From assembly GCF_055900595.2 (NCBI RefSeq), contig NZ_CM148325.1: DNA of 64,000 nt, one strand, 5' to 3'. The notes beneath the pieces are model-generated. The model searched no databases. It was not told the DNA's origin and saw nothing but the letters and a program-made list of their open reading frames with translations. A program made the translations under genes and the position numbers. Positions 1 to 3,209 of this stretch are shown here, one piece after another; position 1 is the first letter of the stretch; the number at the start of each line of letters is the position of its first letter.

Positions 1-864
1 CAGATGCTCGATCTGTTAGAACAAACTCGCGATGTGATTGATTACGCGGTGAAAGCGCACCAGAGCAAAGTGGCGCACGGCCTGGAAGCGCAAGTGCCTT
101 TCCACGGCGCGCGGGCGCAGATTCTGGCGGTCGATAAACAAATTGCTGCCGTTAAAGGGCAAATCACCGAAACGCGAGAATCTCTGCGTGCATTGATTGG
201 CGCAGGAGCCAGCGATATGCCGGAGATCAAACCGGTGGCATTACCGCAAGTCCAGACCGGTATTCCGGCGACACTCTCTTATGAGTTGCTCGCCAGACGC
301 CCGGATCTGCAAGCCATGCGCTGGTATGTTCAGGCGTCATTAGATCAGGTGGATTCCGCGCGGGCGCTGTTCTATCCGAGCTTTGATATCAAAGCGTTTT
401 TCGGCCTGGATTCTATCCACCTGGATACCTTATTCAAAAAAACCAGTCGCCAGTTCAACTTCATTCCTGGTCTGAAATTGCCGCTGTTTGACGGTGGACG
501 GTTGAATGCCAATCTCGAAGGCACGCGCGCCGCCAGCAACATGATGATTGAACGTTACAACCAGTCAGTGCTGAATGCGGTGCGCGACGTTGCCGTCAAC
601 GGCACGCGTCTGCAAACGCTCAACGACGAGCGAGAGATGCAGGCTGAACGCGTGGAAGCAACGCGCTTCACCCAGCGCGCTGCCGAGGCCGCCTATCAAC
701 GCGGCTTAACCAGCCGCTTACAGGCCACCGAAGCCCGGTTGCCTGTGCTTGCCGAGGAGATGTCATTACTGATGCTGGACAGCCGCCGGGTGATCCAAAG
801 CATTCAGTTGATGAAATCGCTGGGTGGCGGGTATCAGGCGGCTCCCGTCTTCGAGAAAAAATAA
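1..864 (+). CDS. mdtP: Outer-membrane efflux factor (TolC/NodT-family), C-terminal part; gene begins upstream of the window
   Basis: Open frame runs from window edge to TAA at 862-864; translated sequence looks like an OMF C-terminus; sits immediately upstream of fdhF as in E. coli. Identity from recall, not from a search. Confidence 0.75.
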   Translation, partial: QMLDLLEQTRDVIDYAVKAHQSKVAHGLEAQVPFHGARAQILAVDKQIAAVKGQITETRESLRALIGAGASDMPEIKPVALPQVQTGIPATLSYELLARRPDLQAMRWYVQASLDQVDSARALFYPSFDIKAFFGLDSIHLDTLFKKTSRQFNFIPGLKLPLFDGGRLNANLEGTRAASNMMIERYNQSVLNAVRDVAVNGTRLQTLNDEREMQAERVEATRFTQRAAEAAYQRGLTSRLQATEARLPVLAEEMSLLMLDSRRVIQSIQLMKSLGGGYQAAPVFEKK

Positions 865-872
865 AATGTCAG

Positions 873-906
873 CCGCGTGATGGCTGTCACGCGGTATTTC
901 GTTTCG
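873..906 (+). terminator. Probable intrinsic terminator after mdtP (stem ccgcgtga / tcacgcgg followed by T-rich run)
   Basis: Inverted repeat directly after the mdtP stop codon, followed by tatttcgtttcg. Confidence 0.4.
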
Positions 907-924
907 TCACGTCAAAACTGACGA
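904..924 (+). promoter_or_regulatory. Inverted repeat TCGTCA-N9-TGACGA, candidate FhlA-type upstream activator site for fdhF
   Basis: Perfect hexamer inverted repeat about 80 bp upstream of the sigma-54 promoter-like element; fdhF is known to need FhlA bound upstream. Assignment is inference. Confidence 0.35.
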
Positions 925-994
925 CAGCCTGTTTTTCGTCAGAGTTTTGAACAAATAGTGCCCGTAATATCAGGGAATGACCCCAAATAAAATG

Positions 995-1010
995 TGGCAT
1001 AAAAGATGCA
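995..1010 (+). promoter_or_regulatory. Sigma-54 (-24/-12) promoter of fdhF: TGGCAT-aaaag-ATGCA
   Basis: GG and GC dinucleotides at the canonical 10-bp spacing, about 50 bp upstream of the fdhF ATG; fdhF is an established sigma-54/FhlA-dependent gene. Confidence 0.6.
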
Positions 1011-1061
1011 TACTGTAGTCGAGAGCGCGTATGCGTGATTTGATTAACTGGAGCGAGACCG

Positions 1062-3209
1062 ATGAAAAAAGTCGTCACGGTTTGCCCCTATTGCGCATCA
1101 GGTTGCAAAATCAACCTGGTCGTCGATAACGGCAAAATCGTCCGGGCGGAGGCAGCGCAGGGGAAAACCAACCAGGGTACCCTGTGTCTGAAGGGTTATT
1201 ATGGCTGGGACTTCATTAACGATACCCAGATCCTGACCCCGCGCCTGAAAACCCCCATGATTCGTCGCCAGCGTGGCGGCAAACTCGAACCTGTTTCCTG
1301 GGATGAGGCACTGAATTACGTTGCCGAGCGCCTGAGCGCCATCAAAGAGAAGTACGGTCCGGATGCCATCCAGACGACCGGCTCCTCGCGTGGTACGGGT
1401 AACGAAACCAACTATGTAATGCAAAAATTTGCGCGCGCCGTTATTGGTACCAATAACGTTGACTGCTGCGCTCGTGTCTGACACGGCCCATCGGTTGCAG
1501 GTCTGCACCAATCGGTCGGTAATGGCGCAATGAGCAATGCTATTAACGAAATTGATAATACCGATTTAGTGTTCGTTTTCGGGTACAACCCGGCGGATTC
1601 CCACCCTATCGTGGCGAATCACGTAATTAACGCTAAACGTAACGGGGCGAAAATTATCGTCTGCGATCCGCGCAAAATTGAAACTGCGCGCATTGCTGAC
1701 ATGCACATTGCACTGAAAAACGGCTCGAATATCGCGCTGTTGAATGCGATGGGCCATGTCATTATTGAAGAAAATCTGTACGACAAAGCGTTCGTCGCTT
1801 CCCGTACAGAAGGCTTTGAAGAGTATCGTAAAATCGTTGAAGGCTACACGCCGGAGTCGGTTGAAGATATCACCGGCGTCAGCGCCAGTGAGATTCGTCA
1901 GGCGGCTCGGATGTATGCCCAGGCGAAAAGCGCCGCCATCCTGTGGGGCATGGGTGTAACCCAGTTCTACCAGGGCGTGGAAACCGTGCGTTCTCTGACC
2001 AGCCTCGCGATGCTGACTGGTAACCTCGGTAAGCCGCATGCGGGTGTAAACCCGGTTCGTGGGCAAAACAACGTGCAGGGTGCCTGCGATATGGGCGCGC
2101 TGCCAGATACTTACCCTGGCTACCAGTACGTGAAAGATCCGGCTAACCGCGAGAAATTCGCCAAAGCCTGGGGTGTAGAGAGTTTGCCAGCACATACCGG
2201 TTATCGCATCAGCGAGCTGCCGCATCGCGCAGCGCATGGTGAAGTGCGTGCCGCGTACATTATGGGCGAAGATCCGCTACAAACTGACGCGGAGCTGTCG
2301 GCAGTACGTAAAGCCTTTGAAGATCTGGAACTGGTCATCGTTCAGGACATCTTTATGACCAAAACCGCGTCGGCGGCGGATGTCATTTTACCGTCAACGT
2401 CGTGGGGCGAGCATGAAGGCGTGTTTACTGCGGCTGACCGTGGCTTCCAGCGTTTCTTCAAGGCGGTTGAACCGAAGTGGGATCTGAAAACGGACTGGCA
2501 GATTATCAGTGAAATCGCCACCCGTATGGGTTATCCGATGCACTACAACAACACCCAGGAGATCTGGGACGAGTTGCGTCACCTGTGCCCGGATTTCTAC
2601 GGTGCGACTTACGAGAAAATGGGCGAACTGGGCTTCATTCAGTGGCCTTGCCGCGATACTTCAGATGCCGATCAGGGGACTTCTTATTTGTTTAAAGAGA
2701 AGTTTGATACCCCGAACGGTCTGGCGCAGTTCTTCACCTGCGACTGGGTAGCGCCAATCGACAAACTCACCGACGAGTATCCGATGGTACTGTCAACGGT
2801 GCGTGAAGTCGGTCACTACTCTTGCCGTTCGATGACCGGTAACTGTGCGGCACTGGCGGCGCTGGCTGATGAACCTGGCTACGCACAAATCAATACCGAA
2901 GACGCCAAACGTCTGGGTATTGAAGATGAGGCATTGGTTTGGGTGCACTCGCGTAAAGGCAAAATTATCACCCGTGCGCAGGTCAGCGATCGTCCGAACA
3001 AAGGGGCGATTTACATGACCTACCAGTGGTGGATTGGTGCCTGTAACGAGCTGGTTACCGAAAACTTAAGCCCGATTACGAAAACGCCGGAATACAAATA
3101 CTGCGCCGTGCGCGTCGAGCCGATCGCCGATCAGCGCGCCGCCGAGCAGTACGTGATTGACGAGTACAACAAGTTGAAAACTCGCCTGCGCGAAGCGGCA
3201 TTGGCGTAA
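1062..3209 (+). CDS. fdhF: Formate dehydrogenase H (selenocysteine-containing, molybdopterin subunit of formate hydrogenlyase); 715 codons with in-frame UGA at 1479-1481
   Basis: ORFs 1062-1481 and 1530-3209 are in the same frame, separated only by TGA; the N-terminus has the Cys cluster (CPYCASGC) and reads VDCCARV-[UGA]-HGPSVAG, matching FdhF as I recall it. Confidence 0.95.
1479..1525 (+). other. UGA selenocysteine codon plus downstream SECIS stem-loop (SelB-binding recoding element)
   Basis: In-frame TGA at 1479-1481 followed by sequence able to form a hairpin (cacggcccatcggttgcaggtctgcaccaatcggtcgg); the reading frame continues for more than 570 codons beyond it. Confidence 0.85.

Follow-up and report, generated by a model that had tools for sequence, protein, structure and literature searches.

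The question raised by this locus is how fdhF is controlled from the short region that separates it from mdtP, and whether the hexamer inverted repeat TCGTCA/TGACGA found there serves both as the terminator of mdtP and as the activator site of a sigma-54 promoter, as a sequence-only reading had proposed. The window, which is the whole stretch of 64,000 nucleotides that was analysed, contains the E. coli mdtP-fdhF junction at positions 1-3209. It is highly probable that the region as a whole is explained as the known fdhF control region, consisting of a sigma-54 promoter and a cluster of probable FhlA boxes, with a separate mdtP terminator.

Locus and published background

The 3′ end of mdtP, which encodes an outer-membrane efflux subunit, is located at 4-864 on the plus strand with its TAA stop codon at 862-864, as shown by the list of open reading frames and by the mdtP annotation in E. 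coli RefSeq records that are 100% identical. The coding sequence of fdhF (formate dehydrogenase H) follows at 1062-3209 on the same strand, as given by the open reading frames and the annotation, and an intergenic region of 197 bp lies between both genes. The fdhF reading frame contains an in-frame TGA at 1479-1481, which specifies selenocysteine, and a SECIS element was found at 1474-1528 (Rfam SECIS_2, 87.1 bits, E = 2.8e-19). The TGA and the SECIS element together are the known selenocysteine-140 recoding site of fdhF. The Rfam search covered 700-1700 and returned only the SECIS element, with no family assigned in the intergenic region or in the 5′ UTR.

Of 5426 complete E. coli genomes, 5419 carry the 601-bp segment of 700-1300 with an identity of at least 95%, and the intergenic region differs from that of K-12 at only three bases (871, 952 and 986). 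None of these differences is located in the core boxes (TCGWCA/TGWCGA and GTCAC) or in the −24/−12 element; the difference at 952 lies just beyond a weaker outer half-site, TTTTGAA. The control region of E. coli fdhF, at 886-1061, had been characterised before, and it is present here as the standard E. coli allele.

Both the sigma-54 promoter of fdhF and an upstream element dependent on FhlA have belonged to textbook knowledge since 1989. The upstream activating sequence and the ntrA (sigma-54) promoter of E. coli fdhF were reportedly described by Birkmann and Bock in 1989 (Mol Microbiol 3:187), and the binding of FhlA at fdhF is said to have been treated by Schlensog et al. in 1994 and by Leonhartsberger et al. 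in 2000. The locus analysed here is the same as that of the published system, with no known difference. The upstream activating sequence has reportedly been placed some 105-120 bp before the start, a position that would coincide with 902-916. The discovery value of the present analysis is therefore small, because both the promoter and the upstream element have long been known. The gain is corrective, in that the terminator and the activator site are separated and the functional element becomes a multi-box cluster instead of a single hexamer pair.

Sigma-54 promoter and transcription start

An element TGGCAT-N5-ATGCA at 995-1010 had been read as a sigma-54 promoter on account of the spacing between its GG and GC. 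The coordinates are right, with TGGCAT at 995-1000 and ATGCA at 1006-1010, and the spacing is also as described, with GG (996-997) and GC (1008-1009) ten bases apart. The assignment as a promoter is borne out by published data: the 17-mer GTGGCATAAAAGATGCA at 994-1010 on the plus strand, which has GG at −25/−24 and GC at −13/−12, matches at 17 of 17 positions the ChIP-seq motif OS41 of Bonocora et al. (PMC4591121), a motif assigned to fdhF and graded "confirmed" in EcoCyc. Binding of the RpoN holoenzyme in the fdhF-mdtP spacer was reported from genomic SELEX (Shimada et al., PMC8743547). For Salmonella, a 10-fold ChIP enrichment for sigma-54 was reported at the orthologous TGGCATAAAACATGCA, and fdhF appears with a 29-fold value in a table of sigma-54-dependent transcripts (PMC3844500).

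The element is also conserved. In a sample of 80 fdhF loci from Enterobacteriaceae, TGG(C/T)A(C/T)-N5-NTGC(A/T) is kept at 51-84 bp before the ATG in 76 loci, and the remaining four have decayed versions of the −24/−12 element. Since the 80 loci are related, the independent events are fewer than such counts suggest. As a pattern, the motif is not exceptional: TGGCATAAAAGATGCA (995-1010) has one mismatch to TGGCAY-N5-TTGCW, and the window contains four matches with at most one mismatch, compared with 6.5 expected. No sigma-70-like promoter was found in 700-1300. The element at 995-1010 is the fdhF sigma-54 promoter, as was already known.

Using the rule of PMC4591121, in which the start is placed 19 bp downstream of the motif centre, the transcription start is predicted near 1021 on the plus strand. 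This gives a 5′ UTR of 41 nt (1021-1061) up to fdhF, with a Shine-Dalgarno sequence GGAG at 1050-1053. An inverted repeat of 13 nt at 1001-1013/1029-1041, which takes in the −12 element as well as early 5′ UTR sequence, was also considered; it is probably due to chance, because only 77% of its positions are complementary and other genera do not conserve the 5′ UTR.

Separation of the mdtP terminator and the repeat

The repeat TCGTCA/TGACGA was previously supposed to overlap the likely terminator of mdtP, so that one hairpin would both end the mdtP transcript and provide the activator site. Its position gives some grounds for this idea, since the repeat is located 40 bp past the mdtP stop codon, could form a stem of 6-9 pairs, and is followed 7 nt downstream by a run of five T residues (932-936). 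The terminator scan, on the other hand, made no call on the repeat at 904-924 and selected 872-895 instead. The intrinsic terminator of mdtP extends over 872-905 on the plus strand and consists of a stem-loop of ten pairs at 872-895, GCCGCGTGA-TGGC-TGTCACGCGGT, followed by the U-rich tail ATTTCGTTTC at 896-905. Only the last one or two bases of this tail touch the left arm of the repeat, and the supposed overlap does not extend further than that.

The folding energies point in the same direction. The RNA of 872-895 folds at −17.3 kcal/mol (z = −3.67), a value equalled by none of 200 shuffles, whereas 900-945, the segment with the repeat, reaches −9.7 kcal/mol (z = −0.51) and is matched in stability by 58 of 200 shuffles. 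Among loci adjacent to mdtP, three of the ten stem pairs of the 872-895 hairpin show compensatory changes. Since this hairpin is strong, has a U-tail and shows compensatory changes, the polymerase should have terminated before it reaches the repeat.

The distribution of the two elements among the orthologues separates them further. In the 76 loci with a recognisable promoter, the median folding energy of the distal segment is −17.5 kcal/mol in the 13 loci with mdtP upstream and −6.1 kcal/mol in the 63 without it. These 63 loci, which have other upstream neighbours, nevertheless retain 2.75 boxes on average, and the inner repeat is present in 53 of them. The boxes and the terminator are therefore separable, because the boxes are kept where the mdtP hairpin is missing. 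Moreover, changes in one arm of the repeat (GTCA to GACA) are often unmatched in the other arm, for example in loci L005 and L009, which fits a protein site and not an RNA stem. A single element that is both the terminating RNA hairpin and the FhlA site is thus extremely improbable, and the proposal of one hairpin with two functions is not supported. Termination of mdtP and binding of the activator belong to distinct elements.

In this arrangement, the mdtP transcript is ended by the GC-rich hairpin at 872-895 with its U-tail, and the boxes follow immediately downstream. Rho-independent terminators are found packed against the regulatory region of the next gene, and the mdtP terminator at 872-905 likewise abuts the first fdhF box. 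Nothing in the analysis points to a role of the RNA hairpin in the activation of fdhF. The terminator scan also gave a weak terminator-like hairpin on the minus strand at 870-886 (CAGCC...GGCTG followed by ACATTTTATT). This hairpin requires the A at 871, where K-12 has a T, and there is no convergent gene for which such a terminator would be needed.

Organization of the box cluster

The inverted repeat itself was confirmed: TCGTCA at 904-909 and TGACGA at 919-924 are perfect over 6 bp with a spacer of 9 bp, and the centre of the repeat at 914 is 81 bp upstream of TGGCAT, in agreement with the earlier estimate of about 80 bp. Such a repeat is nevertheless common by chance. Among stretches of 197 bp, 40% of the simulated and 47% of the real ones contain a perfect inverted repeat of 6 bp whose spacer is at most 12, and TCGTCA-N9-TGACGA has one match against 0.21 expected. 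Three TCGWCA/TGWCGA boxes within 45 bp occur in the 64 kb only at 904/919/936, and 18 of 200 simulations also give one such group. Neither the promoter motif nor the repeat exceeds chance when it is taken alone, so the case rests on conservation, recurrence in the regulon and the literature.

Several further elements of the region had been missed in the earlier reading. A third TCGTCA is located at 936-941, and with it a 7-bp inverted repeat CTGACGA/TCGTCAG (918-924/936-942) is formed. The pair TCAAAACT/AGTTTTGA at 912-919/943-950 extends this repeat into an imperfect palindrome centred near 930. In addition, there are two sets of direct repeats, namely TTTCGTCA at 902-909 and 934-941, which are 32 bp apart, and GTCACG at 886-891 and 906-911, which are 20 bp apart.

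These elements can be described as two cores of an enhancer (UAS). Core I, TTTCGTCACGTCAAAACTGACGA, extends over 902-924, corresponding to about −119 to −97 from the predicted start, and holds the TCGTCA/TGACGA pair (904-909/919-924) together with a nested inner repeat CGTCA-N4-TGACG (910-923). Core II, TTTCGTCAGAGTTTTGAA, extends over 934-951, about −87 to −70, and is an inverted copy of core I that is longer by 2 bp; its TCGTCAG (936-942) pairs with the CTGACGA (918-924) of core I. The middle TGACGA is accordingly as symmetric with the downstream TCGTCA as with the left TCGTCA. Measured from the predicted start at 1021, the boxes are located at about −117 to −70, with a further one at about −135, which is the usual distance for an enhancer.

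In the TCGTCA/TGACGA pair, the half-site centres are separated by 15 bp (about 1.4 helical turns), and in the inner CGTCA-N4-TGACG pair by 9 bp. Helix-turn-helix dimers commonly have half-sites about 9 bp apart. An activator dimer might hence have as its unit the nested CGTCA-N4-TGACG at 910-923 together with the inverted copy TCGTCAG-N-TTTTGA at 936-951, where the left TCGTCA at 904-909 would be an extra half-site. In addition to the closer spacing of the inner half-sites relative to the outer pair, this arrangement is favored by the inverted duplication at 912-924/936-950, by the prediction of two FhlA sites per promoter in Proteus mirabilis (PMC7658346), and by the best match of the published FhlA matrix, which coincides with 910-923, even though the matrix is weak and permissive. 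Applied second-hand (PMC7658346 Table 2), this matrix scores 8.4 bits at 910-923, and the match ranks 94th in the 64 kb. Reconstruction of its training set gave 3829 fully compatible 14-mers in the window, and the fdhF members were not identifiable in this way. Conservation does not discriminate between the arrangements, because the outer pair and the inner pair are each kept in 64 of 76 loci and TGWCGA-N10-12-TCGWCA in 62 of 76. We consider the nested unit to be plausible, with chances somewhat below even.

Conservation of the boxes across species

In an ungapped alignment of 77 distinct orthologous sequences anchored on the promoter, a block with about 80% column identity stands out from divergent flanks, which reads TTCG(A/T)CACGTCA-N4-TGACGA-N11-TTTCGTCAG-(G)GTTTTGAC. 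The positions of the boxes were measured from the T of TGGCAT, and their presence was counted over 76 distinct loci. The left TCGWCA at −91 and the inner CGWCA at −85 are each kept in 64 loci, the right TGWCGA at −76 in 68, and the third TCGWCA at −59 in 62. The TTT(T/C)G of core II is kept in 52 of 76. Only 21 of the 76 loci have TCGTCA itself as the left arm, and most genera have TCGACA at this position. Strict covariation of the central A/T between the arms (GTCA...TGAC versus GACA...TGTC) was considered and rejected: all arms are changed together in Atlantibacter, but not in L005, L009 and other loci, and the comparison yielded no rule.

Within E. coli, the segment of 900-1012 is present at 99% identity or more in 3849 of 5420 records, compared with 10 of 5420 for an mdtP coding segment of equal length. 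The region between enhancer and promoter, CGTAATATCAG...ATACCCACAATAAAA at 952-993, is moderately conserved across genera, with a column conservation of 50-80%, and may be a looping or bending region. On inspection by eye, this spacer agrees poorly with the IHF consensus; TATCAGGGAATGA misses the TTR of WATCAR-N4-TTR, and the agreement is lower still for the consensus of other genera.

Decay of the promoter in the four loci is accompanied by decay of the boxes. In these loci (L055, L074, L078 and L081, each upstream of position 2501), the −24/−12 element is degenerate or missing, for example TGGCAA in L055, and the boxes are degenerate as well, for example TGGCGA. The promoter and the enhancer appear to decay together there. 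In seven other loci (L009, L029, L031, L038, L049, L058 and L072, likewise upstream of position 2501), which represent a clade of Pluralibacter and relatives, the cluster is located about 9 bp nearer to the promoter than in E. coli. This shift corresponds to about one helical turn, and it would be consistent with a constraint that keeps activation on one face of the helix. One of these loci, L029 (CACSKA010000007.1), is titled "Chryseobacterium sp. 18061", yet its fdhF locus is of the Enterobacteriaceae type. A second assembly of that project, "Citrobacter sp. 18056" (L031), has an almost identical control region. The assembly of L029 is probably mislabelled or contaminated.

Comparison with other FhlA targets

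The dependence of fdhF on FhlA has been reported (PMC11291172, PMC7658346). The box arrangement at fdhF was compared with those of other FhlA targets, where the comparison was anchored on the sigma-54 motifs listed by Bonocora et al. (PMC4591121). The hyc/hyp, hydN-hypF and hyf promoters share TGGCA(C/T)-N5-NTGC(A/T) with fdhF (PMC4591121), and TCG(A/T)C(A/G) or (C/T)G(A/T)CGA boxes were found 32-100 bp upstream of their TGGCA, as at fdhF. In K-12, the boxes are located at −87, −78, −65/−63 and −54 for hycA, and at −65, −56/−54, −41 and −32 for hypA. Those of hydN are at −76 and −66, and hyfA has a single box at −100; the corresponding positions for fdhF in this comparison are −91, −76 and −59. 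The number, orientation and spacing of the boxes differ among the FhlA promoters: at hyc they form direct repeats, TGTCGA-N3-TGTCGA, and at fdhF a near-palindrome centred near 930.

The PspF-dependent pspG promoter, which is also included in the window, served as the sole negative control, and no TCGWCA-type box was found upstream of it. This sigma-54 promoter is TGGCATGATTCTTGTA at 36432-36447 on the minus strand (site OS40, PMC4591121), and the open reading frame downstream of it starts with MLELLFVIGFFVML.

Another regulator might instead bind the boxes, for instance HyfR, which is a paralogue of FhlA, or a regulator of the nitrate or molybdate response, with the site of FhlA located elsewhere. 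We regard this as very improbable. The FhlA-dependent promoters that were compared have similar boxes at enhancer distance and pspG has none, and no second conserved cluster of repeats is present between the mdtP terminator and the promoter. FhlA is therefore the most likely protein on the fdhF boxes at 902-951; we infer this assignment, and likewise the stoichiometry, from the comparison. Sigma-54 occupancy, the conserved boxes at fixed spacing, their recurrence in the regulon and the separate terminator are established here or in the literature. The earlier identification of an activator site is consequently correct in that the repeat lies within the conserved activator-site region, but the hexamer pair is only a part of a multi-box cluster that extends over about 886-951.

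With FhlA as the activator, fdhF would be controlled as follows. The sigma-54 RNA polymerase binds the −24/−12 element at 994-1010 as a closed complex that is unable to start alone. The formate-responsive FhlA (GAF-AAA+-HTH) is most likely bound as an oligomer at the TCG(A/T)CA/TG(A/T)CGA boxes, which precede the start by about 70-120 bp. These boxes would be those of 902-951, possibly together with 886-891, and the TCGTCA/TGACGA pair provides two of them. FhlA would then loop to the polymerase, and ATP hydrolysis would open the promoter, leading to a transcription start near 1021.

A related enhancer is that of NorR, which belongs to the same group of GAF-AAA+-HTH activators as FhlA (PMC7175178 Table 1). 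At norVW, NorR has three sites at about −137 to −84, all of which are needed for the assembly of the oligomer and for ATPase activity (PMC2831303). The span of this three-site enhancer is comparable to that of −135 to −70 at fdhF, although the NorR consensus, GT-N7-AC, differs from the fdhF boxes.

Distal GTCAC box

A further box, (T)GTCAC, is located at 886-891, about −135 to −130 from the predicted start, and lies inside the 3′ arm of the mdtP terminator stem. Its GTCAC (887-891) is the top 5-mer in the otherwise divergent segment of −150 to −94, where it was found in 19 of 34 sequence clusters compared with about two expected. A GTCA starting at −113 to −105 from TGGCAT is present in 61 of 76 distinct loci, and in 24 of 34 sequence clusters it is locked in position at −106 to −111. 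In most genera the distance of the box from TGGCAT is about 108 bp. The left GWCAC box follows the GTCAC of 887-891 at a distance of 19-20 bp, or two helical turns.

These observations suggest, tentatively, that the GTCAC box at 887-891 (about −134) is a further contact of the activator, and that the mdtP stem was built around this box in Escherichia, Salmonella, Kluyvera and Pseudocitrobacter, although we consider this rather unlikely on balance. If it is true, the same DNA would be a part of the terminator hairpin and a part of the fdhF enhancer, and the idea of dual use would survive for a different hairpin and at the level of DNA only. Together with the shift of one helical turn in the Pluralibacter clade, the distal box provides small testable points on the arrangement of the FhlA oligomer on DNA. 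The distal GTCAC box was also found in loci without the terminator hairpin.
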